Source: Schmidtea polychroa (Eukaryota). Taken from it: a stretch of DNA of 64,000 nucleotides. The position numbers were made by a program, and so were the translations under genes. The first letter of the stretch is position 1; each line of letters begins with the position of its first letter. This document shows positions 1-60,784 of the stretch, piece after piece. The notes beneath the pieces are model-generated. The model saw only the letters and a list, made by a program, of their open reading frames with translations, had not been told where the DNA came from and did not search any database. The stretch covers positions 73,594,001 to 73,658,000 of the forward strand of contig CM097888.1 in NCBI GenBank assembly GCA_044892525.1, read 5' to 3'.

Positions 1-8
1 TTATATAA

Positions 9-58
9 GTGAATAATTTTTTTTATTCTCTATCTAATTAATGATTATTTTCTTTTAG
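9..58 (+). other. Predicted 50-nt spliceosomal intron (phase 1) of polB
   Basis: GTGAAT...TTTTAG, AT-rich. The junction reads A|TG AAC in the frame of ORF 58-318. The upstream exon is truncated by the window edge. Confidence 0.55.
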
Positions 59-3000
59 TGAACGGATGCAGTTTATATAAATTTTGTATTGCCGAAAGTC
101 ATGAAGATGTGAAGAACTGTAAATCAGTTACATCATCATATTTCAAGATAAATGACTCTACCTTATCGGGTTACATATGTCCGGAATGTCTCATTATATC
201 ACCAGGTAGGTGGTTAATGTTTGTACGACAACACGGACACCATCTTAGAAAATTCGAAGAAACGAAGAGCAGGATGATCACTAAAAGTAATACTCTTTCT
301 ACTATTAACAATTATTAATTTTTTTTTATAGTACAATCGAAAATGAATACATCATACGATCCTAAGCAGATTAAAGAATATGTTACAAGTTATGTTATTT
401 AAGTTGTTTAATATTAATTATAAATATAGTTAGACAAAACTCTGGCACCACAAAACGAAAGTCAATATTTTACGGAAATGGAGACTCTAACATACAATTG
501 TGTCCACGTCGGGAGTCTGACTTAAATGGTTCTCGTGTTGAATTGACAAGCGATGTATCTGCCATTAATTCTCCTGACATTGTTGTTCCAGATTGTCTCA
601 TCAAAGAAATAGAAGATCATATTCAACGAATGGGTACAGTAAAAATCCAATTTGGACTTTGTGCAGAGTTTATCAAAGAGGATGGTGAAATTAAAAAATG
701 GCGTTTGTCGAATAAAGCAATTACAATGTCATCTTCATTTATTAATGATGGAATTGAAAAATTAAAAGAAAAGTTGGAGAAATACACTCAACACAGTAGT
801 GGGTGGAGAATTCATAAAATATTAGAAGTTACTATGATTTTAACTAAATTAGCAGACATAATACATGNNNNNNNNNNNNNNNNNNNNNNNNNNNNNNNNN
901 NNNNNNNNNNNNNNNNNNNNNNNNNNNNNNNNNNNNNNNNNNNNNNNNNNNNNNNNNNNNNNNNNNNNNNNNNNNNNNNNNNNNNNNNNNNNNNNNNNNN
1001 NNNNNNNNNNNNNNNNNNNNNNNNNNNNNNNNNNNNNNNNNNNNNTTCAAGTTACATTAAAACGCCAAATTACCTGAAAAACTGCCAGGCTTTAGTTAAT
1101 GTTCAAAATAATGATCAATTCTGCTTTTTATATAGCATACTGGCCGTATTACATTATGATGACATAAAACACCACAGAGAAAGAGTAATGAAATATAATT
1201 TAAGTGGTAATATATATTTAGAGTTAAAATGGAAATCAGATTGGTTTCCAATGAAGTTGGTTAACATTTCCCAATTTGAGGCAATGAATCCTAATCTAGC
1301 GATCAATGTTCTCAAATATAATAAAGATCCAATTAAACAAAAAACTAATGATATTTTCAAGAATCCGTTCGTTGACTTGGTATATAGAAGTACTTCGACG
1401 GGATCTCAATTATATCTCTTATTGATTGAAGAAGGTAATATTTCCTTTAATCATTAAAAATATTAACTAAATTTTAGAATTAAATTATCATTTTTTGGCT
1501 GTAACTAATCTCGATCGACTGCTCAATTACAGAGATAAAGTAGAAGGAGTCAGAATCCAATCACATTTGTGTCATACGTGTCTTCATGGGTTTCAAAAAC
1601 GTCCTGCTTTTGAAAGACATATAGGTCTTTGTAGGAAGAATGTGGAGCAGACGACTCTATACTCAATGCCAGAGAATAAATATATCGAATTTAAAGACTG
1701 GAGTAAAACTATAAAACAGCAGTTTGTTGTCTACGCGGATTTTGAATCAATATTACCTCTAGATGACAAGCACTTCCAAAAACATGAGCCGATTGCATCT
1801 GAATTTGTGCTTCTTCATCAAGGTTGTCCGATTCGAAATGAAACATTTGTTGGGAAAAACTGTATCATTCAGTTTATACAAGCATTGGATGATATAGCTA
1901 CAGACATAGTTTATCCGTGGTATAAAATTAATGGATCGAAGGAAATGATGGAACTCACTTGGGAACAGCAGGAAGAATTTACGAATCAAACTCATTGCTA
2001 CTTTTGTAAAAAGATTATCAATATACCTGTTCGGGATCATGATCATTTTACCGGTCAATATCTCGGAGCAGCGTGTCAAGATTGTAATTTGGCTAGAAGA
2101 ATCAATCCGTCTTTACCTGTTGTATTTCACAATCTTCGTGGATATGACATTCATCATATATTAAAATATGCAATTGGAAAATTCCCCGATTGGAATTTAA
2201 ATGTTATTCCTCAATCAACAGAAAAGTTTCTCACACTTACAGCGACATCGAAAGGCAGAAGAATTAGATTCATTGATTCTTTACAATTTTTAAATAGCAG
2301 CTTGGCAAATTTATCAAAAAATTTACCATGTCTTCCACTGACCTCAGATGTTTTCGAATCACAGATGATGACTTGTAAAACCATTTTTCCTTATGAAATG
2401 GCTACATCAATGGATGTTTTACAGTCAATAACAGAATTACCACTGATTTGGGAGGGAGTTAGTGAAGAAGATTATATACATGCAAATCGAATCTGGCAAC
2501 AATACAACTGTGAGACACTGCTAGATTACATGCTAGTATATCTCAAGCTGGATGTTTTTCTGTTGGCCGATGTTTTTGAAGCTTTCAGAGAAAAAACATT
2601 TGACGAAGATGGACTTGAGGCTCTATCGTTTGTTTCCATACCCGGATTAAGTTGGGCATCAGCTATTAAACAGTTACCTGAACCGGTAGAACTTATTCAA
2701 GATCCAGAGCTTTACCGTTTATTTGAAGCTGGTATTCGTGGTGGAATGACATTTATCAACAAACATCATGTTGAAGCTGATGAATCAACACAAATGTCAT
2801 ACCTAGATGTTAATAATTTATATGGATGGGCGCTGTCGCAAAAACTTCCTGTTGGTGAATTTAGATGGATAAATGATCAGACTGAAATGAATGGTATTGT
2901 TGAAAGATGTGCAAATGGGGATGAGTTTGATGGAGATCGTGGATATGTTCTAGAGTTTGACATCGTCATTCCTGATAGTATACAAGATAAGCTAGATGAT

Positions 3001-4059
3001 TTACCTATAGCTCCTGAGCTTTGTTATCCACCTGGTAGTAAAGTTGAAAAGCTGTTGTTAACTCATGAGCCTAAGAAAAACTATGTAGTTAATGGTAGAA
3101 TTTTGACAGAGTGGTTGAGTTACGGCGCAAAAGTCACAAAAGTTAATCGTGCTGTAGAATTCAAGCAAGTGGCTATTTTCAAAGGATATATTGATTACAA
3201 TACCAAAATGAGAGCAGCTAGTACGGATTCGTTTCAGCGAGATTATTATAAGTTAAAGAACAACAGTTTATATGGTAAAACTGTGGAAAACTTGAAGAAA
3301 CGTATAAATTTGAGATTATGCAACAAAAGCAAAAGATTGATAACTTATTGTAGTCATCCTATGTTTCGTCGTAGCATCAAGATTGCGGATGATCTCATTG
3401 CTGTTATACTCAATAAGGAAATTGTGTGTTTAGATAGACCAATGTATATTGGACAAACCGTACTTGATTTATCCAAACTTCGCATGTACCAGTTTCAATA
3501 TAAAGAACTACAAAGTTATAGAGAAGAATTCAATTGTCAAATTAATATCGTAGCCGGTGACACAGATTCCTTCTTTTTAGAGTGTAAAAATGTAGATTTA
3601 CGCTTACAACTATATCCAAAAATGATTGAAGATGGGCTCCTAGATACTTCAAATTATCCAGTGACCGATCCGTTGTTCTCTGATAAAATTTGTTCTGTAA
3701 TCGGGAAAGTTAAGGATGAGAATAAAGGAAATCAATATAAAGAATGGGTGTTTCTTCGACCCAAGTGCTACTCACTCCAAGGCGATAAAAACACTCTAAA
3801 AGCCAAAGGAATAAGACTTACAAATTCTAATATCACCCATGAAGCCTATAAAAAAGTGTATACTGATGGTGGAACTGTGAGCATCCCACAAAAAAGAATA
3901 GGAAGTGTCAATCATCAGTTGTATACTTTCATGACAGAAAAACGAGCTCTCCAATGTTTGGACGATAAAAGGTATTGGTACAATTGTAATGAAAGTTATG
4001 CCTACGGTCACTATAAGATTCGCCAAATGCATATTGCAACTGCTATGTCTAGAAATTAA
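59..4059 (+). CDS. polB: Spliced Polinton/Maverick-type protein-primed DNA polymerase B polyprotein (Zn finger, TP-like region, vOTU-like protease, exonuclease with EndoVII-like insert, polymerase). Exons 59-286, 332-388, 430-1434, 1478-4059; the 5' end probably lies upstream of the window.
   Basis: Exo I YADFES, Exo II FHNLRGYD, Exo III YLKLDV, Pol A YLDVNNLYG, Pol B KLKNNSLYGK, Pol C AGDTDS, FLRPKCY, KAKGI, DDKRY. N-terminal family motifs SSGWRI, SSYIKTP, NVQNNDQFCFLYS. Three track ORFs in different frames join into one frame via GT-AG introns. Confidence 0.9.
287..331 (+). other. Predicted 45-nt intron (phase 1) of polB
   Basis: GTAATA...TTATAG. Removes the stop at 316-318; the junction gives TK-I-QSKMNTSYDPKQIKEYVT. 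Confidence 0.75.
389..429 (+). other. Predicted 41-nt intron (phase 1) of polB
   Basis: GTTATG...AATATAG. The junction A|TT AGA CAA enters the frame of ORF 498-1457 with no stop. Confidence 0.7.
868..1045. other. Assembly gap (178 N)
   Basis: Run of N. Confidence 1.
1435..1477 (+). other. Predicted 43-nt intron (phase 1) of polB
   Basis: GTAATA...TTTTAG. Joins LYLLLIEE to ELNYHFLAVTNLDRLL, recreating the family motif LLLI..HY/F.lI.nl.RLL. Confidence 0.88.
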
Positions 4060-4454
4060 TGCAAATCGAAACAAGCACTTTAACAATTAAATTTATGTGA
4101 ATAATAAAATATATATTGTGAATAATTTGTCTTCGTTAATTAAAATATGTTTTATCATTTAATAATTCATTTGTCCAATTATTTTAGATAATTAGTTTCA
4201 AGTAAGAAATATTATTTTCGTGTTTATTTTATTTATTTATTTATTTTTTCCGAAATATTAATATCCGGTTTATCTAAAATTAAATCATCGTTTTATTTTA
4301 TAATAAATTAAATAATTTCTAATTAAAATTTTATTCGAATTGAATAATTACTAATTAAAATTTTATTCAAATTGAAATATTAATGTTATAATTTACGTTC
4401 TTGTTAGAATATAATGTAAATGTAAAATTAAAAAAAATAAATAAATAAATAAAT

Positions 4455-4890
4455 AAAATAAATAATAATAATAATAATTAAATAACGTTAGTAATTAAAA
4501 CAAAATATTAAAAAACAAATTAATTAATTAAATGTAATAAATTAAAAATTAACTAAAGTAAGTAATTAAAAATATAACATCATAAAATAATTAATTAATA
4601 AAATTAAAGAGAAAAAAAAATAAAATAAATAAATAGAAGTAATTAAATAAAATTAAAATTAAAAAAAAAATAATAATAATAATAATAATAATTAAATAGC
4701 GAAGGTAATTAAAATAAAATATTAATAAACTAATGAATTAATTAAATGTAATAAATTAAAAATTAACTAAAGTAAGTAATTAAAATATAACATCATAAAA
4801 TAATTAATTATAAAAATTATAAAGAAAAAATTAAAAAGAAGTAATTAAATAAAATGTTAATTTAAAAAAAAATAATAATAATAATAAATG
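4455..4890. repeat. Two imperfect tandem copies of a ~210-bp extremely AT-rich unit
   Basis: The block ...AATGTAATAAATTAAAAATTAACTAAAGTAAGTAATTAAAA.TATAACATCATAAAATAATTAATT... occurs near 4530 and 4745. Confidence 0.8.
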
Positions 4891-6429
4891 ATTCAATTGA
4901 CCTATATTTGATCTTGATATTCCATGACCTTGAAAGTGTCCTGGAGTCCTTACTACATACTACTTTGATATTATTTTTAAATAATTATTAGCAATGATTT
5001 TAAGTTTATTTGATAAAGTTTTTACACATTTCCATAATTGTTGAACTTTGGGAAATTGAAACTTTTGTATTCTACAAATGTTTTCCCTTATCCTGTAATG
5101 TTCACAAAAAATATGGATTGACATATTCGAAAAACCCTATCTCCTTGTCGGCAGTAACCATTGCATGATTTATCTCCTTTATCTTTTGTGATAAAAAACA
5201 AGTTTTCATATATTCTATTATTGTATTTCTTATCGTATAATTGACAATTCCTACTTGATATGCTAAAATAGAAGTGTTTTTTAACCAGTTTCTAGTCTTA
5301 AATTATTTAAAGTTTAATTTTTCGAAATAATTTGTTCTTCTTTATTTTTATTTTAACAACAACTAAACCGTAGGAACCAAATAAAATTATAATAAAAATA
5401 CGATTAAACGCGATTTTTAATTTATCTTCATTCTTTGATCACTGATTTAAATAGAAAACAAAAATTAAGTCTATAATCTGAAAGAATTAAAATAAACAAA
5501 ATTGAAAATGAAAACAAATCGAAGGTGAAAAATTTAACTGATCTTAAAATTCAATTATTTAAACATGGTCTTAATAATCAACATTTTACATTCGATTGTT
5601 GAAAATTTAGAAATTTTCATTATTTATTTTAGCATAAGAACTTTTTTTCCAATTTCACCATTGATTTCTTTTCCATTGTATTTATTAAAAATCTTGAAGA
5701 CTATGAATCAGTAAATATATCGATGTTTTTGATATATTTGCTGATTAATAGTCTTCAAGCTTTTAATAAATTATTTATTTTGATTTACTTTATTAATAGC
5801 GATCACAAAAATAGTGAGTGGTTAAAAATAGAGACCATCAAAACAGCGACAATAAATACTAGTGAGCAGATATTTAAGGAATAATTAAAAGGTGTATACA
5901 CAGGCGTTAATTACTGAGTACAAATCAAATTAATTTGAGCAGCAATAAAAAATTCTATTTAGCAGTAATTTATCGCTCAATCAATACGTGACGTGTTTAG
6001 TGCCTTGGATGATTAATTACCAAGAAGTTAATTATTGAGTAAAAATTGAAAGATAGTTAAAGTAAAATGTTGAAAATCCAGGTAATCACCAAAAATAATT
6101 TATTTTTTAATTGAGCAGTAATCAAAGAAAATTTAAACTATACTATATAAAATAATAAAAAAAAATTATTCCATATATAAATTTTCAATTCATATAATAA
6201 ATCGCTGTTTTTGATGAACGCTGTATAACGAAATCACTATTATTAACGTACACCTTTATTTTAATATTACTTTTGAAAATCTCTAAATGAAAATAAATTG
6301 TTTATTCTCTACTCTTTATAAAATTATAATCAAAGAAAACTTTTTATCATTTTATCTATTTTTTTAGGATAGCATGTTTGTTTAAAGCAAAAATAAATAT
6401 AGAAAATAATATATAAAAGTAACGTTGTT

Positions 6430-7994: not shown

Positions 7995-9099
7995 TTAAGA
8001 ATTTTTAATAAAATTTTTAAATCAGCCTATTTTTCTCTTACAGTCCTTATCGTGCTCACTAATATTGGGCAATGCCTTCGGTCTATAATGTTCTCGAGCT
8101 CGAATACAGAGATGAAGAGAGGTCTCTCCATTGTATATAGCATTACACCCGTTACATATAAACTGATAAACGATATCAGAATACAATTCATCCGGAGTTT
8201 TAGACTTAATTTTGAATTTCAATATTTTAAAATTTTATTTTGAAATTATTATTTTTTAAAAAATTATTTGGATTTATTATTTGGATTATAATTTTTATAA
8301 CATCTTAAAGAATAAAATATTTGTATTAAAAATTTGATATAATTAATATACATATTGCATACTTTACATGAACTTGATACAATCTTATAGTTTAAATTCC
8401 TCAAATGCTTGCTTAATTAATTTTAATAATCTTTAAAATCTTCTGACTAACCAACACAAATTTAAGTTTATCCTTCTAACACTCGCTATTTAATTTATTT
8501 AACTTATTAAACTCACCCACACCAACAGAATCACACCCAGATTTTCTCAAACATGGATCCTTAGGATTTTTAATAAATTTATCAACAGTCTCTTTTCCCA
8601 TAATTAATAAAAAAGATTTTGAATAACCATTCTTCATTAACAATTCAACCAATTTATCAACACTTTTTACTGAATTTACAAAAGTAGAAAACAAAGACTT
8701 TGAACGATAAATCAATCCCTTAATCATATTTCTCTTATACTTGAATTCACAAGAACTTTCGGACGAAGTATAGAATTGGTTCTCTATAAATCTTTGTCTT
8801 ATAGTGTTTCATTTGCGTTGTATTAACAGATCGAAGAAAGCAAGTGATGATTTTTTCACATGTGGATACAAAGTATATATAATACGATGTGTATATAATA
8901 TAAAAGTATGACTCATCTATGATAACTCAGTGCTTTGTTAAATGGACATTACGGAATTTTTTAAAAAGAAGTAAATGTTAATGTAATAGCCTTATTACAT
9001 TATTCGAATTGTGGTAATAACTGGGTACAAAGTTCATGCATTCAAGCATTAACAACACCAGTCGAATTTCCTGTTACGAAATTAGGAAAATAAATTTAA

Positions 9100-10818
9100 A
9101 TTAATTCAATGTACATTGTTATACACAAATGATACATAAATGATTGTCTACAAGATATGCGCCTGAATAAATTACGAATTGTAAAGAGGTTTTCTATTTC
9201 ATGACAAATTTGACTATGAGGTTGCAGTGAAATGAAATAATTATTTTTGTCATCTAGAAAGAAGAGAAGACTAGAAAATTCGAACATTTACAAAATCTGA
9301 TTTGATGACATTTTCTGTAACAAATATCCACTGATATATATCCACAAATATCCATTGTTGGTGGAAGCAGGTTATTAATTACAAATATTTGCTTATCTTG
9401 ACTATTTCTATGAAAACAAATATATACAATAAAAGTTGAAGGTTATTAGTAGGTAGATATATGCTCCCTGCAGCGCGACCATTAGGTGTGTCCCTTTCTT
9501 ATATTAATTACGTAATCAACCCAGATTATTTTTTCATTGCGTAATTATGTAATATTTAATTAAAGATTTATGTCAATTTGAAGAGCTATAGTCAGAGATT
9601 ATTTTTAGTCTCTATCCTATACATTAAAACATGTACACAATAACAAATTAGCTAACTATAAATATTGTTTATTCAATGCAATTTATCAAATATGCGCAAA
9701 AGTAAATTAAAAAAAAACAATTAATTTGTCAAGACTTAAAATAAATTAAATTAATTTGTTAGATTTCTAAAACATTTGATAGTACTTTGAATAAAACTTT
9801 AGAACATTAATTGATAAGACACATTAAATAAAGTTGTTAAATAAAAGTGTCATAAAAAATTATCAACCACAATACTAAGATATTGAATTTGCAAGTCTTG
9901 AATCTAATACTTGAGATCATCTTTTTGTATTGATATTTTTAACCTTAAAACCCAAAAGTTCTTTAAATTCACATAATTTTTAAATAATACATAATTACGT
10001 AATTAATATGGGAAGGAAGGTATAGGTCGTGCTGGAGGGAGCTACTTATTGTTATTATTTAAAAAAGTAATAGTTTTAAAAAATTTATTGTTCGAGAAAT
10101 ATAAACAGGAAATGAAGTCTATTGTCATTAAAAACTTTTGAACAAAAGAAATTACTATTCTTCATAAATTTATTTTAAAAGGTAAAATTCATTGTATTTA
10201 TGTTGAAGAAATTGAATTACAGACGAGGCAATTGAATTTGATACAATGTTTGTAAAATTATAAAATCAAAATTCTTTTATTGAAATCAATACGTTAAAGA
10301 CTTAAATGATTTTCATTCGAACTCCATTAGTGTTCTTGAGTATCATAGTAACAAACTCATAATAAAATATAGATTTATTGATACCAAATTTACGCCACAA
10401 TAATATTAGGCTGAACCCAAAAATATCAATAGATTATAAGCGATTATATGTTAATTAGGTTGTGTACATCAACAATGACACAACAGCTATGAAATTCAGT
10501 AATAAAACAGTTCTTGACAATGGAATAGTTTTAATTATTTAATTATTTCACTTTTTATTATTTTACTCACCTTTTATTTACTCGCTTGATTACGACCATT
10601 TTCACTTGTTTCATATCTTTTATTTATTTGTTTAATGAACGCTTTCATTCTTGGTCAATTTCTGGCAATCAGTTTTCGATATAACCACTTAATCCCGGAA
10701 TTAATATTAATTTAGTCTTTTAAATTTTTTATGCATTTTAGATTTTGTTCGATAACTCGTAATAACATTTTAATTAATTTTGAATTTCAATATATATTTG
10801 CTTTTCCCTTACGTTTTC
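9100..10818. repeat. Unclassified dispersed repeat, copy 1 (block A ~9100-9590, block B ~9960-10818)
   Basis: Block A matches ~31990-32936 and block B matches ~34790-35660. Part of A recurs at ~48890-49020. Confidence 0.8.
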
Positions 10819-14302: not shown

Positions 14303-15388
14303 TTAGTCAATATAGGTGTGTTCGCGATAGGTGTGGTAGCTACTAACAATGGCAGCAGTGCATGCTTTCCTGCATAAAAGTTTAATCTCAGATTTTGTTA
14401 GGTCAATAATCTTAAGTCTAATATCGTTTTCTTTGTCCCACGATCCCAGAGTTCCTACTACTAATTCTGAGGTGGTTGTTTTACATTTATATGCGTGGCC
14501 TACCTCAAGGGCAAGGTGTTTATACTTTTCAAAATTATCTTTGCGTTCTCTATCAAAGTATTCACGTTTTTCGTAAGGCACCCTAATCTCAAGTATATGT
14601 GTAAGGGTGTTTCTAGAAGAGTTAATAAGGAGGTCAGGTTTAAGAGTGGTATTAACTCCTTCAGGAGATATTTCGATGTCAAAGTTAAATTTATATTGAA
14701 ATAATGCTTCAGAGACAGCTTCGAGTACACGCGTATGTTTGTTTCTGCGTGCATTTATCATAGCTGGACAATGGTTGAATATATGCGCCTGTGTTCCTGG
14801 GTGAGAGTTACATTGTCTACACATTATTGCGTGTTTGGATTTAATCCTATGAGGAGAGAATTTAAGTTTTAGGATATTATTGCGAGCTTTTATGAGAAAA
14901 AGGTATTGGGCATCAGTTAAAATGTCAGATTTTATAAAGTAATCGGCTGTGCTGCTATCTGTAATGGATTTAGCTATATGGCCTTGGTATGTCAATAAGC
15001 ACCATTTCTCTGCGTGTATATGGGCTATAATGGAATGAAGTTCAGAAGATGTGTCTTTAAGGTTGGATGAGGAAAAGTAACTGATTCTATCTTTGTATTT
15101 AATTTCAAGTTGATAAGAGTCATCTAAGAATATTAATTTTGTACGAATTCCATATTTAAGTAGTAGGCGATAAGAAGACTTTCGAAACTTTGAAAAAATA
15201 GAACTACTAGGGAAGGATTTTGTGATTTCTCTATTAATCCTTGAGATAGCGACCTCAAGATTACCCTTTCCACGGGCATCTTTGAGTTCAGAGAGTATGA
15301 GATTGTGAAAGCCTAGGTCATTAGAGTTCAGCGCACGGATTAGATGGATAATACTTTGTATAAGATATTCATCAATTGCGGAGGTCAA
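14303..15388 (-). pseudogene. C-terminal CCHC knuckle and restriction-like endonuclease of the non-LTR element
   Basis: CRQCNSHPGTQAHIFNHC, RNKHTRV, LKPDLLI, LEIRVPYE, EKYKHLA, VVGTLGSW. Confidence 0.9.
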
Positions 15389-15667
15389 TCCCAGACCCCC
15401 CCCTTTTAGTAGACGCCTATAAAAAGTTAGTATTTATTTGTATCATTCTGTTACCAATAAATTTTTTAACAATCATCTTGATTTTTTGATCGAACCCTTT
15501 TTGGGGGTCTCTATATTTAATAATATTATCCTTATGGGAGTCCAGAATATTGTGAGAGATTTCGCAGTTATGGAAGGTGAAGATAAGTCTAGAGTGTACA
15601 AATATCTTGAATGCATTAAGTTTTTATGAAGGATGGAGGTGAGATTCAAAGATTAATTTAGTGTCAT

Positions 15668-16720
15668 TTATAGCATTATCAAGCCTTTCATCAATGTTAT
15701 GCCTCTTTTTATAGGAGAGAAGTCTACTCCAAGATATCTATATAGATTGGAGTCGTCTATCCTAGGAATTTGTTCATTATAAAGAGTAACCGGAGAGTAA
15801 TTGTATTCATGGTTAATATGAAAGTATACAGATTTAGAAGGCTTGAAGCGAAGGTTTACAAGCGATGCCAGGCGTACAATCTCTAAAAGAGCTTCGTTAA
15901 TGGAAGAATACGAGTCTGAGACAAGGACGATATCGTCAGCGTAAGCAAGAATACCTATATTGTGGCCATTAAAAAGAAAGGGATGACTAATTAGAATACT
16001 GCGTAGGATGAAATCAATAGAGAGGCAAAAGAGAGTCATTGATAGGGGGCAGCCCTATTTTACACCTTTAAGGATCGGTACGGAATGGGATTTTTCCCTT
16101 CACAATCGAAGACAGTATTGACATTGCTATACATATCTTGTATAAGTTTGATAGTTTTAGCGTTTAGGCCCATTTTGGTTAAAGTGTGCCAAATCAGGTC
16201 ATGTGGAAGTGACCCAAACGCATCAGATATATCTAGCCATATAATATGAAGATCCGATTTGTTTCGAAAGGCTTTTTTCTTAACAAGCTGAAGAATGAGG
16301 TTGTGTTCAGCACAACCATCAGAGGCTCCAATAGCCTTTTGATTACCGGCGATGTCCACCTTCTTTAATCCATGATAGTAGGCGGTTATTAATAAGAGAT
16401 GAAAAGATACGATAAGCGGTGTACATAACTGAGATAGGTCTCCAGGAGCTGGTTTCAGTTTTTCCATTTTTAAGGATAAGTTTAGTGCGAAATGTTTTCC
16501 AGTTCGACGGACAAGTACAATTACGCAAAATGTTGTTACATAAGGAGAGTATAAATTGGAAGTCAGGAGAAATCTTTTTCCAATCTGCAAGAGAGATCAA
16601 GTCGATACCAGAAGCAGTGTTTTGTAGTTGTGCAAAGATTTGTTTTATGTCTTCAAAGTCAAACGGAAAGGAGGAACGGGATTCAGGTAGTATAGGAAAG
16701 TTTAGAATAAGGTCAGTATT
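15668..16720 (-). pseudogene. Frameshifted reverse transcriptase of the non-LTR element
   Basis: WRPISV, NQKAI...GCAEH, WLDISDAFGSLPH, GVK*GCPLS, AYADDIVL, FKPSKS and YRYLGV spread over three frames. Confidence 0.92.
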
Positions 16721-17259
16721 GCAGGAAGCTGATTTTCCTGCGAAAAGTCTCAAAATATTGGACATAGTTGGTCGATTGGATTCGATGCTTTTATTGAGGA
16801 TCTTTGAAATTTCCTCCTTTGGGTTGAATTTATATTTATTACGTTTAGTTATTAATAATTCGTTTTTATTACGTGATTTTTTATGGATAATATCTGATTG
16901 TTTTTTAGAAAGGTATTTTTTGGGGGAAATATTATTATTTATTTTTTCAATTTCGCTAAGGGCTGTATCACAGTCAATTGCATCATTATTTGGGGTAGTT
17001 AAATTAGTTTTTTTAATCAAACATTCGATCATGTGGCATACAAAGAAGGCAGATTCATCAGGTGAGGAACATCGAGGATATTCAATATTTCTAAGCTGTA
17101 TAGATACCGGAGAGACAATTTTCTGAAGGTCAAGGATAGTATTTAAAATATTATTTGCAAGAGAAGAATGTATAGAAAAGATGTCATCTATAAGAGGGTC
17201 AATAATAAGTGCTAGACTTCTACGTTTGTCAAGGAAAAAGAAGAACCAATTGTCTTTAC

Positions 17260-17527
17260 CAGGGGTGGGGTACCTTTTTATTTCCGTAGGCCACATTGAA
17301 ATTTGTCGCCTTCAAATGAGGCCGCAGTCAAAAAGTATTTCGTTTATATTTCGTTCTTTGTACTCGGCGGGATGCTTGTACAGTACAGTATATAGACAAT
17401 TCAATAGTTACAAGCATTTTTATTTGTAAATCCTCAAAATTCATGGTTTTTTATATAAATTAAGATTTATTTTGATAAGGCTCCAGAGGCCGCATGCGGC
17501 CTAAAGGCCGCAGGTTCCCCACCCCTG
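17260..17527. mobile_element. hAT (Charlie-like) MITE, 268 bp, nested in the non-LTR element
   Basis: TIR CAGGGGTGGGG(T/A)ACCT; 8-bp TSD GTCTTTAC at 17252-17259 and 17528-17535; subterminal GGCCGCATGCGGCC. Confidence 0.93.
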
Positions 17528-20441
17528 GTCTTTACCATTTGACATTGGCATAATAATTTCATTCCATTCGGCAAAGTCTTTGAATGGGAAGGAGGTGAAG
17601 AAGGTTTTGAAGTTATTTTGGATAAGTGAGTTTCCAACATATGGGTCGACAAAGATTGTAGACTTTTTCATCGCGTAAGAGTAGATGAATTCCTTTATTG
17701 TATGCTGTGCTGTGACCATCATGATGATTCATTTTGAATATTATTAGAGAATAAACAGTCATTTGGGATTTCTTTACAGTAGTTGATTACTAATTGTGCT
17801 ATCTCTTCATCAGAGGTGGTTAAAGGAATTTCTTGGGTGTCTAAGATCCCATTGAAAATGTTTCTATTATCCACGATAAGTGTTAAATTATTATCAGATA
17901 TTAGTAAGCTATTATCAATAGATGGGGTATGAGCGGTTGGATGATTCTCAGCAATATGAGTAGCAATGTTATTGGTAGGGATCCAGCTCCTACAGTAGCA
18001 ATAGATTTCCTCTTCTTTATCAAAAATTCGGTTTCTGTGGCGTTTCGTCATGTGGTCATATATAATTGTAATGGGTGTATTCCATTTCCAATTAGTGAAA
18101 CATTTTCTATAATTCTTATTATGGCTGTTACATGTTATAAGGTTTTTTCTGTCAATCTTTAGGAATACATTTTTAAGAATATCCTTGTCATTTTGTACAG
18201 CATGGACGTATAGTTCTGCGTGTCTATAGAGGTCTTTTAGTTTAATTGGGTATAGGACATATCTTTCGTCCTCTCCTTTGCATTGGTTATAGTCAATGAT
18301 GGATTCCTCAGTTAGTATAATATTATGCTCTTCGTAGGCATGATTAAATCATTTAACCCTGTCATAGATCGATATTGTACCACAAGAAGGTTTGCTGTGG
18401 TGGTGTTTACATCTGATTTTACCCCTGGAGTCAAAGTAGTATAGATTCGGATCTTTTAGGTATATTGATTTCAGGGATTGAGGAACAATAGTTTGCGCAT
18501 TTTTAGGTATATCGCGTGTGTCAACACTGATTTTTTTCCCTACGAGGCATGTGGGGTTCTGAATAATATTGGTTGATAAAGAGTTAGCACAATCATTGTT
18601 TATTAAATTTATAGTATTATTTTCTTCAAGTTTATCATCAACCATATATGTATTAACTATTGGAGATTCAAAAGTAGTGCGATTCATAATTGGTAGATCG
18701 GTGGGATTAATAATTTCACATGAAGAATTGGTATCATTTAAGGGGGACGGTCTAAATGTTTTTGGTAATATTTCAGATTAGAATTAGTGAAGGAGTTAGT
18801 ATAATCCTCAGGGCTTACGGCAGAAGTAGATTTATTACTTGTACTAAATAAAGAGTTGTCCAACATCGGGGCTTGCATAGATATGTTTGATGGTAGATTA
18901 GAGTCAGGTTGTAAGTCATGAGGACAATGAGACAGAGTAAGCTTATCATAGGTAATGTTAGTTTGAAGACAGTTGGATTCTCTTAGTGGTGTTGATGAGG
19001 TTGGAGGATAAATGATTGCATTGGAACAATTCGACTCAGTATAGCTATCTGTGAGCAGTATATCATCGCAATCAAAGTCGTCATCTAAGTCACAATTATC
19101 CGGTTTTTATTCGAGTCATTCGAGAGAGGTGAGCCTATTTTATTACTAGATTCATTATTATTATATTGGTTCTTGGGTTCAGAGGGGGTATTTGTTTTAT
19201 GATAAATATACTGCTCAATTATTGCATCCTTTTTTTAAGATAGGTATAGAGGCTTCTGCGGTTGTTGATAGGCATTGAGGGCTTTTATATTGTTTATTAC
19301 AGTTTAATTTTTTATAATTAATAGGCCTAAGTTTATTCTTTATATGATTTTTAAAAATGATATTATTATTATTGAAATTATTAAATCTAAAGGATTCTAA
19401 CAATTTTTTAACTTTAGTTGATTTTGGTTTTAATATATTCATATTTTGTGGTATGAATTTAATTAGCGGGGGCTTAGTTGTAGGACTAATAGGCTTAGAG
19501 AAGTGAGATCTAATAGGATGAAAAATCAAGGGTTTTTTGAGTAAGTTTTTACTATTAGGTAGAACGGATCGAGTACTGGTCTACGTAGGAAGATTGGATC
19601 TATTAAGTATTTTTTTAGTTTTTAGAATTGAGGTAGGATTCAAAGAAAAGCTTTTATTTAGCGTCCTAGTTTCAGATATGTTGATAAGAATATCGCCAAG
19701 CAATGCATTAGAAGGAACCCTAATCTCAGACTCCATATAGTTTTGGTGACTGACTATTCAGAGATAAGTTATCAGTAAGAATGTTCTGGAAAGAGGAATC
19801 ACCACTCGTCTCAATGATTGAGGACGGTAAGGCAGTTGGGACTTGAGAGACAGATGAGGGTGGGTAGGTTTTGGATCAGTTGAAAGAGGTACAGGAACAC
19901 GAGAAAAATATTTTCGAGAAAGAGGGTATATAAATATATGATATTTAAACGAACTTTTATCATTATTTAATATAGACATTTTATTTGAATAAATAAAATC
20001 AGAAATATTATTGATGACAGTATTTATTAATTCATCAGAAAATCCATTATTAGCTGGGACTTCTTTTATTATAATTAGTAATAATTTTTTTAATAATGTA
20101 TTTAATTTTATTTTTAAAGAAATTATTATATTTACTAATTTGTTGAGGGTTAGGATTAATTAAATTTTCGAGAATTTCAGAGTTAGAATTAAAAAGATTA
20201 TTATCATTAATTAAATTGTTTTTAGATTTAATTAAATAATTCATATCACTATTAATGTTATTAATATCATTAGTAAAATTAGAGGAAGCATTGGGTGATA
20301 AGGGGCAATTATTAAGGTATGAATTATTAAAATAATTAGATTTGAGGTTATTATAGTTATTATTATGATTTGGAAGGTAGTTATTATTAAGAATTGAATT
20401 AGAAGTAGTATTTAATTTATAATTATTATTATGAGTTAGAA

Positions 20442-22906
20442 CAGGCATGAGCAACATATGGCCCGCGGGCCTCTTTTGACCGGCCCGCAGTGTTCATTGA
20501 TCCACACCATATAACCAGTCCCTTGATAAGCTATTTTTTTATTGCAATTTTATTGCAAAATATTTATAAATCTTAAACTATAAATCGTAAAAGAAATTTT
20601 CTATCGATAAAGTTTGTAATTCTCATCATTTATCAAAAATGATATAGGTTTATAAATGTAGTAATAGATGAAATAAGCTAATTAAGGATTACAGTATTTG
20701 TTTTTGGTTTATCTAATTTAATATTATTCCTTCCTTCCCGAGTATTTAATGATAAGTGGACATCGGATTATCTGTTTGTAGAATCAAACAATATGCTCGT
20801 TTGTCTTGTTTGCTCGCAATCAATTTCCGTTAAAAAGGAATTTAATGTAAGACGGCATTACCAGACTCAGCATGCAGAAAAGTTTGATCAGATACAGGGA
20901 CAATTAAGGAAAGATAGGATCGAATCTCTCCGAAAAGCACTTCTAGGGCAACAGACATTCTTTATCAAAGTTAATCAAGAGGTTGAGTGTGTTGTGAAGG
21001 CGAGTTTCATGATAAGTGAGATAATTGCCAAGAAACTGAAACCGTTTTCTGATGTGGAGTTTGTCAAAGAATGCATTGATGCTGCTGTGGATTGTATCTG
21101 TCCCGATAAAAAACAACTTTTCTCGAATATCAGCCTTTCTCAATTTACAATCGTAAGACGAATTGATGATATTGCAAAAAACATTGAAACAATCTTGAAA
21201 GAAAAAGCTGAACTATTTCAAGCATATTCAATATGCCTTGATGAAAGCACGGATATGACAGACACCGCGCTGTTAGCAATTTTTGTGCGTGGGGTTGATC
21301 AGGACTTCCACGTTACGGAAGAACTGTTGAAATTAGCGAGCATGAAAGGGACTACAACTGGAGAAGATGTTTTTGATGAAATCAAAACTGCATTGGCAGA
21401 AAACGGGCTTTTTCTTCCAAAACTAACAGGAATAACGACAGACGGAGCTCCGGCAATGGTTGGAATAAAAAATGGAGTAGTTGGTTTATTGAAGGCGGAG
21501 CTTGTTAAAATGAAAGGAAGTGAGCAATTAATTGCATCACATTGCATAATCCACCAAGAGAATTTATGTGTAAAAGAACTAAAGATGGACCATGTGATGA
21601 CAGTTCTTGTGAAAACCGTGAATTTCATAAGATCACGTGGATTGAATCATCGACAATTCAAAGAGTTTCTCACTAGCATTGAGACAGAATACTCGGATGT
21701 AATTTACTTTAGCGAAGTTCGCTGGCTGAGCAGAGGAAAAGTATTGCATCGCTTTTATTGCCTTCGTGAAGAAATTAAACTTTTTATGGAGATGAAGTCG
21801 AAACCAATTCCGGAGTTATCCGATGCAAATTGGCTACTTGACTTGGCCTTTTTGGTTGACATCACAACGCATCTGAATGATCTAAACACGAAGTTACAAG
21901 GCCGGCATCAACTGATAAATAATCTTTGCGATCATATCAAAGGATTTCAGACAAAGCTAAAACTATGGGAGAATCAATTATCAAAGGACATAACGGTGCA
22001 TTTTCCAAATCTAACTGATTGCAAAAATGTTGCAAATTTAGCTAACACGAAGAAATTTAATGAACACATAATTGCATTGAAAACACAGTTTTCTTCAAGA
22101 TTTGCTGATTTTGCCGAACATGAAAATGATTTCAAACTATTTTCTGAACCATTCAGTGTTAATGTTGAGACAGCACCAGAATCAATGCAAATGGAGCTCA
22201 TTGAATTGCAGCGTAATGGCGATCTGGAAAGAAAGTTTCGTGACGTCTCTTTGATTCAATTCTACAAACTCTACATTTATCAGAAAGCGTTTCCATCAAT
22301 CCGATATCATGCGCTGAAAATGGTCTCACTTTTCCCCAGCACTTACATCTGTGAACAATTCTTTTCTAAGATGAAACAAACAAAGTGCAAAAACAGATGT
22401 CGGCTCACTGATGATAACTTGTCAAACGAATTACGAGTAGCAACATCAACTATCAAGGCAAATATTTCAGATTTATGTCGTGATAAGAAGTGTCAAATGT
22501 CACACAGACCAAAACCAGAACAAGATTGATATTGATATGTTGGGTATATTTGAGTAGTATATGCAAACTTGAGAAGCATAAAAAATATAAATTCGAACAA
22601 TCCAGAGTTTGTGCGAGTAAATAAACTATAAATATGGGATTATTAAAGTTAAATTTGGGTATTTTCATAGTTTGTATATTTTGCCTTCCAATAACAACTA
22701 GTATATAGTATATAATATATAATGTATAATATATAATATATAATATATAATATATGCCTAATCATGTAAATTTAAATGATCTTTGCTATTAAAAAGATAT
22801 ATTATTGGAATATATATATTAATAAATTCGTGCTAAATACATCCGGCCCCCGAAACATTTTCAAAGACTGAACTGGCCCCTAACAAAAACAAGTTGCTCA
22901 TGCCTG
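20442..22906 (+). mobile_element. Full-length hAT transposon (Buster/SPIN-like), 2465 bp
   Basis: Perfect 14-bp TIR CAGGCATGAGCAAC; perfect 8-bp TSD AGTTAGAA (20434-20441, 22907-22914) with central TA; GGCCC subterminal motifs. Confidence 0.96.
20793..22529 (+). CDS. hAT transposase (GTF2IRD2/SPIN-like), apparently intact
   Basis: CLVC...RRHYQTQH, LDESTD, TTDGAPAM, HCIIHQE, SEVRWLS, FPSTYICEQFFS. The frame is open upstream (RVFNDKWTSDYLF), so the true start may be earlier or spliced. Confidence 0.93.
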   Translation: MLVCLVCSQSISVKKEFNVRRHYQTQHAEKFDQIQGQLRKDRIESLRKALLGQQTFFIKVNQEVECVVKASFMISEIIAKKLKPFSDVEFVKECIDAAVDCICPDKKQLFSNISLSQFTIVRRIDDIAKNIETILKEKAELFQAYSICLDESTDMTDTALLAIFVRGVDQDFHVTEELLKLASMKGTTTGEDVFDEIKTALAENGLFLPKLTGITTDGAPAMVGIKNGVVGLLKAELVKMKGSEQLIASHCIIHQENLCVKELKMDHVMTVLVKTVNFIRSRGLNHRQFKEFLTSIETEYSDVIYFSEVRWLSRGKVLHRFYCLREEIKLFMEMKSKPIPELSDANWLLDLAFLVDITTHLNDLNTKLQGRHQLINNLCDHIKGFQTKLKLWENQLSKDITVHFPNLTDCKNVANLANTKKFNEHIIALKTQFSSRFADFAEHENDFKLFSEPFSVNVETAPESMQMELIELQRNGDLERKFRDVSLIQFYKLYIYQKAFPSIRYHALKMVSLFPSTYICEQFFSKMKQTKCKNRCRLTDDNLSNELRVATSTIKANISDLCRDKKCQMSHRPKPEQD

Positions 22907-32936: not shown

Positions 32937-34477
32937 CAGTGGCGTAGCTAGGGTATGTGCCGACCGGGGCGATCCTTAAAATTGCCGCCCCCCTCTTGTA
33001 CATTTTTTAAAATAAAAACTTTCCAAAACAGACGGCCCATTTTGCCTCCCTTTCAAAATACGCTACATACCCTTCACATATATATACTATTTATTCGTGT
33101 ATGAAATATTTTTTTTCTTATTTAAACAAAGTGTTTTATAATACATTAAAACATAATAAATTAAGCATTGTCAAATTATCATTATATTTAATTTTTAAAT
33201 AATACAATAGAATGCAATATATCAAATAGTATAAAACAAGACAAAATTAACATATCATTACAGAGTAAAAAAAAAATAAATTAATTATAAAATTAGCCAA
33301 CAACTAAAAATATTGTATACAAAAGTTGTTTATATAAATTGGTATTAAAGTAAAAAAGGACACTAATGTAATATAAAAATCATCAACTGATACTTTTTAA
33401 TTGTCTTAGAACATTAATACCCATAAACTATATTCTACAATCTACATAATTACTCTTCTTGCTTTTCGTCTAGCAAAGTCATCAATAACATCATCGAAGT
33501 CTGCTTCCTACGTTAATTGATGTTCTATTGATAACATGGCAAGATTTCTCAACCGTAAACTGTGCATAGAAGATCTTAAGTAATTCTTAATTAATTTTAA
33601 TTTTGAAAAACTTCTCTCGCGGCTAGCCACACTTACAGCAATTGTCAGGAAAATTCGTAATAAAATGACAATATTTGGTACGGAATTTCCAAGATTATAT
33701 TTTTGAATGAACTGTAAAAGCTCAAAGGGGCTTTCTTTCAATATTTCTGTTTCGTCTCGCATAGCTGCGGCAGCGACGAAACTTATTAATCTTTTTCTTT
33801 CAATAAAGAATTCTTCCTTATTGATATCGTCACGATCATCACTTATCTGACAATTATAATCTTCGTTTAAAAGATTAGTTGGGGCAAGAAATCCATATTT
33901 TTCAGCAAGAACATGAATCTGTTGAAATCTCGTATTTATTTCTTGAATAACCCTGTCTAGAGAAGAATATATTTCTCTTCGCAATTCAGTTTCATACGGC
34001 AATTCAGCATCATTGGATCCTTCATCAAACATTCTTTTTTTCTTTTTGCACCGACGCTGACGCTCCATGATAATTCCTAAATCAGCACAAATTTCCTTGG
34101 CATATATTATCTCTTTGTTATTAGGTACCATAAAGCACTTACTCGACTTGAACAAATAATGGAAAACATCTGTTAAAATTTCGACTTTTACCGATTCTAA
34201 AAAATCGCCAAATTTTCGGATAGGGTAAAATATTTGTATATATAGGGGCAGCCTTTTATGACTGGCAAGTTTCTTAAATTCAACATTTCTTAAAATAATA
34301 AATAAGTTATTGTTAAGCTCTTGCTATTCGTGGATATATACGTATATATTTATTTTAGTGCATTCAGGTTTAAGAATCATACAGACGATCTCATCGCGAA
34401 TATGCCACCCCAGAGAAAGTGCCGCCCGGGGCGGCCCCCCCGCCCCCCGCCCCCGCCCCACCATAGCTACGCCACTG
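32937..34477 (-). mobile_element. Internally deleted hAT (ZMYM1-like), 1541 bp, retaining the transposase C-terminus
   Basis: Perfect 14-bp TIR CAGTGGCGTAGCTA; TSD ATTTTGAA (32929-32936, 34478-34485); dimerisation motif IFLTIAVSVASRERSFSKLKLIKNYLRS in ORF 33508-34155. Confidence 0.95.
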
Positions 34478-36791: not shown

Positions 36792-37710
36792 CTTATATAA
36801 ACAAAATCTCGTGGGACATTTTCTTTTTATAAATTTTAATTTCAACCAAATATTAACATACCGTCAACATACCACATTCATACTTGAATTGCAATTTTAT
36901 TAAACATTATTCCATTTCAAAATTAAAATTAAAATATTCATTTTAATTTTAAACCATTTTATTTCTAATATATTTCAAATAATTTAAGTTACATGAAGTT
37001 CTTTTGGAGCTCCAAACTTTGATATCCATCTATTTAATAAAGTCTCACTAATTGTTTTTTCGTCTTGCTTGTTTATGGCCTTTAATGAGATGTATTTACT
37101 ATAGTGATCAATGATTATATATATTTCTTTTTATTGAACGTTTCTTTCAATGGCCCACATATGTCCATATATATCTTCTCGGATAGTTCAGTACTCTTTA
37201 TTATTTGAGTTTCCTCCTTTGTCTTGGTTGTTATCGTTTTCATTTTCTGACATCTTTTGCAGCTCTCAATTACCCTTTTTACTTCCGTTGATAGATTTTC
37301 CATGTCGAAATTATTCTGGATATATTTCGTTACTTTCTGTGTACCTGCCTGGCACAGCAATACGTGTACTTCTTTTATCATCTGCTGTCTATTATCTGAT
37401 GGTATCCATATTTTACCTTGCTTAGTTAGTACCGTGTTGTTTTCCATTATGAATTTACAATCTTTATTTTTTAACTTATTCTTTATTTCTTGGACCTCCA
37501 CATTGTCATTTTGCCACTTGTTATATCCGCCTTCTGCTGTTACTGTTAATATTCTGGTTTTAATTTTGCCGGTTTTTGGATATTCGTGTTCCATCATACA
37601 CTGTACACATGTTCCTTATGTTTTCATGGATAGCATATCCGTGTTTGTATGGCTTGTCCCTTTTCTGTATTTCATTTTAATATCCAGGCTGCTTAAATAG
37701 TTGATCCATG

Positions 37711-38203
37711 TGTTGGGTTATTGAGTTATTTTGTTCTATTTTGTTCTACTTTTTGTTCTGATTTCTCGATCAACTGTTCTGCTTTATATAGTCTGTTTCA
37801 TTTGTGGCACTGACGACAGATTCTGTTTTCCATTTTCCTTTTCCTCTACGTCAGCCTTATCTCTGACAAATATCAAGATATTTTCCCATTTGACTTTTTT
37901 ATTAAGACGCCTTCTCCCGACAATTTCGCTATCTTTGACAAGCTGTCAAGATACGGCTTTTTCCCCTATTTTGTTTTTCTGGAATTTGAAATTTTACCTT
38001 CATTTGTACTTCTTATTTAACAATGACCTTTGTTTTAATTTCTTGTTTGTTTCCTTTTATTTGATTTATCTTTCTCATTTTTAATTTCTTTTTACTTCCG
38101 TTTTCTTTTCTGAGTTCCCATAGATCGTCCCGTTTGTCATGATGATCTCCCCCCGGTAATTTATTTATTTATTATGTTATTTATCATTTAGGTATCCTCA
38201 ACA
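37711..38203. mobile_element. Solo LTR (493 bp) of the same family, inserted after RNase H
   Basis: TGTTGGGTTATTGAG...GGTATCCTCAACA; 4-bp TSD CATG. Confidence 0.9.
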
Positions 38204-38348
38204 CATGTCTGGAATTGAGCAGTTATTGGTTTCTTCGTTGTTACCATAAACGTTTATGGTACGTTCTCAGTGAGAATCTTTTACCATATAAGTATTGGTA
38301 GAAATGTTTACAAAAATAGTATATTGCCAATAATTCTTTCCTGGTAAT

Positions 38349-39125
38349 TCAGTATCCATTTTTGTGGCTGCTCATCGCATGTGTACCATATGCAATGACA
38401 TGTCCATATCCTTTTTCATCATTTTGCGAAAGAACTGTTCCAATAGTATCGAAGCTTGCTTCTGTGTCTAATATAAATTCTTTTCTGGAGTCTGGAAATA
38501 CCAATACTGGAGCGGTTACCAATGCTTCTTTCATTTCCCCGAAAGACTTTTCAGACATCTCTGTCCATTTTATTTTCTCATTGTTTTTTCCGCATAAGCT
38601 TTCTAGCGCTCTTGTCTTCTTTGCATAGTCCTTTATGAACCGTCGATAATAGTTACAGATACCCAGAAAGCTCATCAGATTCTTTACACATTTTGGCTTT
38701 TGAAATGATTGTAATGCTTCTATCTTAGTATGATCTGTTTGTATGCAGTCTCTATTTATTATGTGTCCCAGAAACTTCACTTCTTTCGTAAATATTTGAT
38801 ATTTTTCGGGGTTCAATCTTAGTCTTGCTGTTGAGATCTTCCCTAGAACTCTTCCAAATACGTTATTGTGTTCTTTTTCTGTCTTTGTGAATATAAGTAT
38901 GTCATCTAAATATACCACTCCATCTTTCCACAAATATTTCAATACTTTCGTCATTAATTCTTGAAATGTTCCTGGTGTCACTGCAATACCGAACTGGCCT
39001 TCTTTTGTTGAGAATGCTGTTTTCTCTTGAGATTCCTTATCTAACTTCACTTGGTAATAAGCATTTCCCAAGTCGATCGAGCTAAAATATCTGGATCCGT
39101 GTAAAATTTCATCTACATTTGACAT
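38349..39125 (-). pseudogene. Gypsy RT/RNase H segment
   Basis: YFSSIDLGNAYYQV, KTAFST, VVYLDDILIF, FLGICNYYRRFIKDYA, FILDTEASFDTIGTVLSQ. Confidence 0.93.
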
Positions 39126-39799
39126 TGGAAATCCTTGTCTTTCTGTTTTCTTGTTTAATTGTCTGAAGTCTCTCTATATTCCATACACAAGTTAAAGGTG
39201 TGTTCCACGGTGAATTACACTTCCTAATTATTCCGTTGTTTTCTAGATTTTTTATTGCTTCCTCAATCTTGTCTTTTTATTGGTTTTCATATTTGGTTTT
39301 TATTGGTTGCTGCTTCCGTTTAATCATTATTGGCTCTCCTTTCGTGATTATCTTATGTTTAATCAGATTGGTACACAAAATACCCCATTTATCTGCCATG
39401 AAAACGTTCTTGTTCGCCTGAAATATTTCTAACAGTCTCGTATTTCCGGTAACCTTTAAAACGTCGATAGCATGACGTAATCTTTCTTCATCTGTTATAA
39501 TCCGCCCAAATCTAGCTTATATTTCGCAAATGAAATCACTACGTTTTCCATTTTCTTCTCGTATACATTTAAATTCTATACCAAATAACCTTTGTAGTTA
39601 TACTCCTCCGATAATTTCTGGTATGATATTCCTTACTATAATGAATGTTACATTTCTTTCACTATCGCCCATTTTAACATTGATGTTTATTTTACCCATA
39701 GTTTATAATCTACTGTTGTTTGCACATTTTAGCGATTCACTTTTTTCTATTATTTCTATATTTTCTAATCGATCAATTATTGATTTCAGCCATCACATT

Positions 39800-40138
39800 T
39801 GAAAGGGTAGAATTCGCGTTTAAGTTAAAACTGAACATTGCTAACAAATATTTAAATTGTATTTATCAGATTACATAAATTTTTATATAGATATTTAAAT
39901 TAATAAATTAAAGTAAGTTTAAAATATAAAAATAAATTAAAGTATATTAAATATTAAAATAAATTAAACCAGCATTGAAATCAGCATCAAAATTAAAATA
40001 ATAAAAAAGCTTCGAACAGATTGTTTGAATATTACAAAAAAGCGCAATTTTTTGAATAAAATAAAATTTAGTAATTTTATTTGGTTATTTTATTATTTAT
40101 GGATATTGAACATGAATTCGACGTTGTTGCGGATAACA
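39800..40138. mobile_element. Solo LTR (339 bp) of a different family, inserted in the gypsy protease
   Basis: TG...CA termini; 5-bp TSD ACATT (39795-39799, 40139-40143). Removing it rejoins DTGA*INV with MAEIN. Confidence 0.8.
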
Positions 40139-48300: not shown

Positions 48301-49328
48301 TAATATTAATATATTTCCATTTAAAAGATCTTAAATTTTGGAAAAAACGTCTCAAATCATCAATAATCGACCAATGGTTCATAACAATTGGTTTAATTGG
48401 GAGTCTGATCCATTGTATAGCAACCATAGAAGCTTTTGCTAACAACATAAATAGGTGGAGAATTTTTTATATAATAAGATATGCTACCGAAATACATCAG
48501 ATTATAATACAAGCAATATACATATTTATGTTTATTAATTTAGAAAATCATGGATTTTTTAAAAATAGCTTAATGGAAATTATCTGTCCCATATTTTGCT
48601 TGTTTTCGATCAATTTTGGATTTTTCGTTGGAGATTACATAACTATAGAATTAACAGAAAACCGTACTTCTTCTGAAGGATTCAGATGGCAATTACTAGA
48701 AATTGGTTTCTACCATTTTGGGAACATGTTTATGATTTTTATGCGATTTCATGCTTCTATTGTATTTGGACGGTATGTTTTCTTGAATAACAGTCTTTGA
48801 TTTTTATCAGCAATAATATTAATGATATTATAAATTCAATAAATAAACAGAACTTAGTCTTTATTGTTTACATGATGTAATAATGTGTAGAGTATGCACC
48901 ACCTCTTATTTTGTTTGAAGATCACTCCTTCCTTATAAAATGTTAAACAGTCATTGTTAGTGGAAGCAGGTTATTAATTACAAAATTTTGTTATTCTCAC
49001 TATATATAGAAAAACAGATTGATCGTAGACTTTTTAACGAGAACCTAAATTTAGTACAAAAAATCCCAGAGACCTAGAAGAGACCTAGGCTTTTTTATCG
49101 AGACCTGAATTCCATGTAAAAAAATATTAAACCCACTTATTTCATAAAAAAAGATTATCAAGAATTCACCTTTTCATCAATTTGAATTTCATTTAAACGA
49201 TTTTTCTGAATATTGAGTTTAAATTGTGTGATGATATTTTAAATATTTAAAAAACTATATAATTATTGTAGCTTATCAAAAACACAATAATTCTTACAAA
49301 GAAAAGATTTGATTAAATATAAGTAGAA

Positions 49329-60443: not shown

Positions 60444-60784
60444 ATGGAGTTAATTAAAGTGTGTGATGTTGAACCAATATTTTTACCATCAAATGATGAT
60501 ATGATAAGATTAATGAACCCTTTACTGTTGGTTTCAAAAGAAACTTCAAGAAAAGAAAAACGACCTATCATTTCAATAACTAAACCTCCTGTTATTCACA
60601 ATGCGTTTGGACGAGGTGTTCGAAAATCAATAAAACTCAATTGGTAATATTTTTAGTAAATAAATTATTATTCAATTTCTTTAGTCCTGGTGAAATAGAA
60701 TTCTCTAAAATTTTAGAAAAAAGTGACGATAAACTAAGTTTCGCTGAGGATGAAATCTCAAACGATATTATAATTTCACCTTAG
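60444..60784 (+). CDS. Small two-exon host ORF of unknown function (~100 aa; exons 60444-60643 and 60685-60784)
   Basis: A 41-nt GT-AG intron at 60644-60684 removes the stop and extends the frame (…KLNCPGEIEFSK…ISP*). Confidence 0.5.

Follow-up and report, generated by a model that had tools for sequence, protein, structure and literature searches.

At the start of a 64,000-nucleotide stretch of the Schmidtea polychroa genome (C4:73594001-73658000, here called the window) lies a gene for a Polinton-type protein-primed DNA polymerase (pPolB) whose reading frame is broken by short, AT-rich GT..AG segments. Has a viral polymerase become a host gene, or does a mobile Polinton-like lineage rely on the host spliceosome to express its replicase? 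A preliminary description of the sequence had left both answers standing. Our analysis favors the second: the gene is probably the polymerase of a high-copy, polymerase-only Polinton derivative, with six short phase 1 GT-AG introns whose removal likely falls to the host spliceosome. The introns are constrained and the family is mobile, which supports a Polinton-like lineage with a spliceosome-dependent polymerase.

Structure of the polymerase gene

Four GT..AG segments, at 9-58, 287-331, 389-429 and 1435-1477 (50, 45, 41 and 43 nt; 84-88% AT), interrupt the gene where the preliminary description had placed introns, all of them in phase 1. On this four-intron model the length of every internal exon (228, 57 and 1005 nt) is divisible by 3, and a single frame is kept. 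The open reading frame (ORF) at 1471-4059 has no internal stop, and the last exon, an open frame of 862 codons, matches PF03175 (E 8e-31) and, below the cut-off, PF02945 (Endonuclease_7, E 3e-4). The exonuclease and polymerase motifs ADFES, FHNLRGYD, YLKLDV, YLDVNNLY, KLKNNSLYGK, GDTDS and KCY align in 17/17 homologs, as do two residues of the OTU-like domain, the Cys in NDQFCF and the His in NYH, so that the claim of intact motifs in a stop-free last exon is borne out. The earlier list of introns was correct in these four and incomplete: the supposed exon at 430-1434 comprises three exons, separated by the site of intron 4 and a remnant of intron 5. The gene of this polymerase family has six introns, all in phase 1 and all within its first 1.5 kb.

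On the plus strand, the gene opens with the end of a leader exon (1-8), whose donor context is kept in 33/33 elements of the family. Intron 1 (9-58; 47-52 nt in 33 elements, ends kept) appears to split the start codon, the first base of which would be the last base of the leader exon; the M-N start predicted after its removal is the same as the starts of the continuous homologs P0002 and P0010. Exon 2 (59-286) encodes an N-terminal Cys/His-rich segment that matches the N-termini of P0002, P0020 and P0010 (E 3e-11 to 5e-7). Intron 2 (287-331) measures 41-47 nt with ends kept in 33/33 elements, and is followed by a 57-nt micro-exon (exon 3, 332-388), an open but poorly conserved linker with no significant homolog match of its own. 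Intron 3 (389-429) is 41 nt long in 32/32 elements, with GT in 31. The visible part of exon 4 (430-867; 35-54% identity to homologs) encodes an alpha/beta domain at the position of a terminal protein and runs into a stretch of N (868-1045); at the homologous place other elements carry intron 4. Exon 5 (1046-1206) holds the first part of an OTU-like region, including the NDQFCF Cys. Next comes the remnant of intron 5 (1207-1221), an in-frame GT..AG segment of 15 nt, a length found only here and likely too short for splicing; intron 5 measures 39-125 nt in 30/31 elements, a count obtained with a search pattern that itself demanded GT-AG. Exon 6 (1222-1434; 35-54% identity to homologs) carries the remaining OTU-like domain as far as the strand before the His, and intron 6 (1435-1477; 42-43 nt, GT and AG in 34/34 elements) lies immediately before NYH. 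The last exon (1478-4059) encodes the OTU His, the weak Endonuclease_7 match, the exonuclease and polymerase, and the stop. As had been proposed, only splicing joins the NYH His to the Cys in NDQFCF; a role of this junction as a switch is unsupported.

A structural model of the homolog P0001 (mean predicted local distance difference test score 87.7) has phi29 polymerase as its closest structure (E 2.6e-19). In its OTU-like domain a helix begins at Cys225 and a strand contains His328, which agrees with the pPolB polyprotein in PMC11161782, where the catalytic Cys is helical and the His belongs to a strand further on; the OTU-like assignment comes from these conserved residues and their placement, the fold search having been made with the whole P0001 model. 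Ahead of this domain, residues 76-190 form a folded alpha/beta domain. The site of intron 4 falls between the alpha/beta and Cys/His domains, and that of intron 6 in the turn leading into the strand with the His. The alpha/beta domain of exon 4 is a predicted terminal protein, a name borrowed from the layout given in part of PMC11161782.

Constraint on the introns

Variants and introns were scored across 44 elements, with the frames of the 5' exons followed in 32-35 copies and the last exon in 37. Each intron retains its GT and AG in 30-34 copies, with no more than one exception apiece, while intron lengths differ between copies by non-multiples of 3. Intron 4, found in 31 elements, is 44-203 nt long and in phase 1, often with a TA repeat, and has GT in 30 and AG in 31. 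The four scored 5' exons contain a single frameshift. Among variants common to several elements, the ratio of nonsynonymous to synonymous polymorphism (pN/pS) is 0.22 for the 5' exons and 0.17 for the last; for single-copy variants it is 1.49 and 0.61, respectively. Shared coding variants are under purifying selection. The 37 last exons contain 22 frameshifting indels and 8 single-copy stops, so that many copies of the family are dead. Continuous homologs show zero length difference from this gene across introns 4 and 6. Because the ends are kept while the lengths drift, the shared variants are constrained and intron-free relatives align flush, the introns are not products of decay.

The segments have the features of U2-type spliceosomal introns: GT-AG ends under constraint, AT-richness and colinear intron-free homologs. 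On informal inspection, no resemblance among the six introns was noticed. No precisely intron-less genomic copy was found for introns 1-3, the introns that this check covered together with intron 6, and one intron-less match at intron 6 was not recovered on re-check of loci L001-L187, which gave edge artefacts only. The preliminary description had listed host introns of 41, 47 and 48 nt in the window; a crude scan for such introns returned one 41-nt candidate, at 60644; the same scan missed three of the four introns reported earlier. Three sequencing runs presumed to be RNA, although not so labelled on record, were searched through contigs aligned to a paralog (L028) rather than to the window. 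In run X1, two contig ends cross intron 6 by 15 and 13 letters, against 31 required by our rule for bridging, a weak hint that this intron is spliced.

Copies, ends and palindromes

A search with 490 residues of the polymerase scored 87 matches, 97-100% identical, out of 15,099 first-look candidates, a figure that sets a minimum. Of these matches, 44 can be grouped into 22 divergent pairs with partners within 20 kb of each other, and no convergent or tandem pairs were found; among the unpaired matches, 5 of 12 examined (10 kb each) have a second inverted arm. The window gene itself lies inside an element of 15,016 bp whose left end is outside the window, at C4:73583949, and whose AT-rich right end occupies 4060-4964, where AGTAGTATG reads inward on the minus strand. 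The element has AGTAGT ends and is flanked by a 6-bp direct repeat, at 4965-4970 and directly before the left end. Such target duplications flank 19 of 22 elements; in the remaining three, one end was not located. The same ends occur on one-arm elements, which measure 6.5-6.7 kb and have repeats of about 0.6 kb, and on palindromes whose arms reach 6.5 kb; many elements are palindromic, each arm containing a polymerase. Arms within an element are 99.5-100% identical (11/11), and the median identity between elements is 98.0% (289 pairs).

The search for terminal inverted repeats and core genes that the preliminary description had proposed succeeded in its first part: inverted repeats of the AG/AGT type, a criterion for Polintons/Mavericks, are present. 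An integrase, ATPase and capsid set belonging to the element itself was found at none of 36 sites with queries from Polinton families A and B (see below), a set of queries that held no protease and that very divergent genes may escape; what the queries did hit were nested insertions, flanking sequence and a single fragment of 0.6 kb, and capsid genes occur in other Polinton families.

The interior of the window element contains tandem repeats of 144 bp and of 31 bp, along with a second copy of the gene that is truncated (L022:4968-5374, 8112-8429 and 8630-9333). Upstream of the polymerase, at L022:9900-9960, are CCTTGATTTTGATTGG and TATA-like words; similar words on a metagenomic contig (L194:1-110) suggest that they are perhaps a promoter common to both lineages.

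Other Polinton families in the same genome

Family A has a full gene set and a polymerase 26% identical to that of the window. Families B and B' have polymerases about 55% identical, together with integrase, ATPase, capsid-like and TBP-like genes. Their polymerases are colinear with exons 4 to last of the window gene and continuous across introns 2-6; an acceptor-like AG stands immediately before the first conserved segment, and a leader intron is therefore likely in B and B'. The first nine bases of B' ends are identical to those of the window family, and B' terminal repeats form the centers of several of its palindromes. B' occurs as complete elements, as polymerase-less elements and as palindromes without core genes. 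One polymerase-less core element, V1, has B' ends and a 6-bp duplication, and 10 of 12 sampled B' capsid loci have their own polymerase.

Several observations on these families stand apart from the window gene. The short TBP-like gene of B and B' (PF00352, E 5e-15) lies head to head with the ATPase gene (L104:3735-4223; C2:189286041-189303878) and has a homolog on the metagenomic contig L198. Giant palindromes with B' ends and 6-bp duplications, lacking polymerase and core genes, were found at C1:33265903-33281268, C1:108478184-108493207, C4:48043701-48057683 and C1:181091030-181106225, and the arms of core-less B' palindromes match an intron-like cargo region of V1. In family A, long inverted duplications take in capsid or polymerase genes (C1:165718433-165735219 and C1:199755160-199770000). 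The word TCAAGGTCA, which we take to resemble a monomeric nuclear-receptor site, occurs in B' terminal repeats and palindrome centers; V5 contains it 40 times and element S2 12 times, but 59 kb of the window show it twice. A further polymerase family, 66% identical to B and 54% to the window gene, adjoins the end of a one-arm element (L120:2743-4173).

Age of the introns

Metagenomic relatives were collected at 75 loci, 47 of which match both the Cys exon and the last exon. Two of them, L194 (Ga0209894_1001330) and L201 (Ga0209894_1003328), are 56% and 50% identical to the window polymerase and have GT-AG phase 1 introns exactly at the sites of introns 4 and 6; intron 5 is absent. In its 5' part L194 has two further phase 1 candidate introns flanking a micro-exon. 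L217 and L218 are discontinuous, but in the portions inspected neither shared site has an intron. Locus searches of viral and metagenome contigs with a single protein gave no match; an alignment-based search yielded three viral loci, one of them a 29% match.

All trees were quick trees, and seven ENA homologs whose starts lie within or beyond the OTU-like region, and which may themselves be intron-split, were excluded from the 5' tree. L194 groups strongly with continuous forms, one of which shares its 12.9-kb contig with genes for capsid and integrase. A single clade of the three intron-bearing polymerases is rejected (approximately unbiased [AU] test, p=0.00029), and the intron states require at least 3 changes on the 34-row tree. 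The 5' module and the polymerase part place L194 alike, and a simple module swap was not seen. Recurring in distant relatives, the two shared introns look older than this host lineage. They are probably old features of this polymerase clade that were precisely lost in several branches; the coincidence of the two sites leads us to favor loss over gain or transfer.

Proposed mechanism and alternative explanations

How might such an element multiply? Host transcription and splicing would yield a polyprotein with a predicted order of terminal protein, OTU, exonuclease and polymerase (as in the layout in PMC11161782). On free linear copies, the AGTAG ends would be where the enzyme primes replication. 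In a step modelled on adenovirus end repair, the displaced strand would fold back on an inner inverted repeat and be extended, giving two near-identical arms; fold-back copying would explain both these arms and the pieces of terminal repeat in palindrome centers. An integrase borrowed from elsewhere, most plausibly from a complete B' Polinton, would then insert the product and leave the 6-bp duplication. A bolder version, which we put forward tentatively and consider possible rather than likely, is that these are satellite-like Polintons cut down to a spliceosome-dependent replicase, with introns that are ancestral to a broad clade of polymerases and were many times precisely lost in DNA viruses, and with palindromes that are integrated snapshots of fold-back copying. 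If true, the precise losses would imply RNA-templated correction of a DNA-virus gene, and the giant palindromes would be a genomic record of Polinton self-copying.

A number of results weigh against a spliceosome-dependent polymerase family with a borrowed integrase, or against parts of that reading. As the preliminary description had suggested, a pPolB phylogeny was made, and it groups the window polymerase with metagenomic relatives, apart from B and B', which speaks against B' as the helper; the evidence for a helper integrase consists of the nine shared terminal bases and the palindrome centers. A cognate complete element may lie outside the 36 sites inspected. Among the metagenomic relatives, 43 of 47 are continuous over the intron region, and because of this an old and often lost set of introns needs many precise losses. 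The listed contigs of runs X1 and X2 are unspliced through introns 1 and 3, and no splice joint was listed in the three runs, whose cover is gapped. The window copy, whose visible frames are open, has two residues absent from all 28 other elements compared; one private residue at a near-invariant column and the 15-nt remnant inside the OTU-like domain suggest that this particular copy may give no working enzyme.

The same results feed several alternatives. Real introns at shared sites could stem from independent gain, or from transfer between co-infecting elements, after settlement in the nucleus and at favorable sites. The scattered placement of the three intron-bearing polymerases, the prevalence of continuous relatives and the lack of intron 5 in L194 and L201 all agree with this; we nevertheless regard it as unlikely, given two sites identical to the base and in phase in three lineages only about 50-56% alike, and the concordant placement of L194 by both parts of its gene. 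The polymerase-less element V1, together with the common end bases and the B' repeats in palindrome centers, could also be read as a Polinton split in two, the window family being the polymerase segment and a polymerase-less core element its obligate partner. This is very unlikely, since most sampled B' capsid loci carry a polymerase of their own, one that is diverged and in another clade.

The reality of the introns may be questioned as well: the AT-rich segments could be decay or fossil introns in an unexpressed gene, with the family spread passively by a helper Polinton. The mostly unspliced contigs of the RNA-like runs, the frameshifts and stops in the last exons, and the gene-less B' palindromes that multiply without any polymerase are all as expected on this account, which is hard to credit when shared variants are constrained on both sides of the introns and intron ends are kept while interiors change. 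A domesticated viral polymerase acting as a single host gene, the other answer in the preliminary description, has short host-style introns and intact motifs on its side. It fails the copy-count test proposed with it: at least 87 near-identical matches are dispersed in the genome, and element ends and target duplications surround this very copy. Dispersed, end-bounded copies with 6-bp duplications refute domestication for the family, and we give it next to no credence for the gene. A polymerase-only Polinton derivative whose introns are real thus remains the preferred explanation.

Other features of the window

The rest of the window consists mostly of transposon remains, hAT-like by Pfam and retroelement-like by eye, at 14303-18777 (minus strand), 20682-22529 (plus strand), 33508-34323 (minus strand) and 37115-40741. 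A hydrophobic ORF of 518 codons at 47244-48800 (plus strand) has no Pfam match.

Comparison with known systems

A PF03175 polymerase with an upstream Cys/His OTU-like region is described, in parts of PMC8502044 and PMC11161782, for animal adintoviruses with an Alpha-type PolB, and passages of PMC8097293 give (AGT)2-type ends and 6-bp target duplications for Polintons. The window family shares all of these with Polintons/Mavericks. It differs in its six spliceosomal-type introns, in the integrase, ATPase and capsid genes, which were not found (a protease was not queried), and in its size of 6-15 kb, often as a palindrome with two polymerase genes. Thus pPolB, terminal inverted repeats and the 6-bp duplication place it with Polintons/Mavericks, and it does not qualify as an autonomous Polinton: integrase, ATPase and capsid genes of its own were found at none of the 36 sites searched, and its gene is not intron-free. 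Compared with families B and B', it has a colinear polymerase, the nine end bases of B' and, likely, the leader intron in common, whereas those families are continuous over introns 2-6, carry core and TBP-like genes and fall in another clade.

Intact vertebrate Polintons are reported without introns in passages of PMC8097293, where only intron-free elements were counted as intact, and the methods in PMC10120064 presume continuous Polinton reading frames. Because surveys presume continuous frames (the portions of PMC10120064 and PMC8097293 just named), intron-split lineages may be missed or called dead. A full-text search of research articles listed none that describes a Polinton polymerase split by introns or a palindromic Polinton with a polymerase alone; Repbase entries may mention introns or non-autonomous forms. 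A constrained intron-split polymerase in a young family suggests that such elements can rely on host splicing, and two sites shared over about 50% protein divergence, outside a single clade, offer a way to test how DNA viruses gain and lose introns. To our knowledge, Polinton replication has never been directly observed; the near-identical arms offer a handle on it.

In form, the palindromes recall the snap-back or copy-back defective genomes and panhandle end repair of adenoviruses, in which two inverted arms arise from one end and a helper is needed; the window family differs in being integrated with target duplications and in keeping a constrained polymerase gene. Teratorn (described in part of PMC6431247) likewise has long inverted repeats with inner terminal repeats at the boundary, but is a fusion of a herpesvirus and piggyBac with its own transposase. 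Finally, the introner-bearing Polinton-like viruses of dinoflagellates, as presented in passages of PMC12166617, also have spliceosomal-type insertions in integrated elements. Those introners are intron-making transposons, whereas two introns of the window family are conserved in position in distant relatives.

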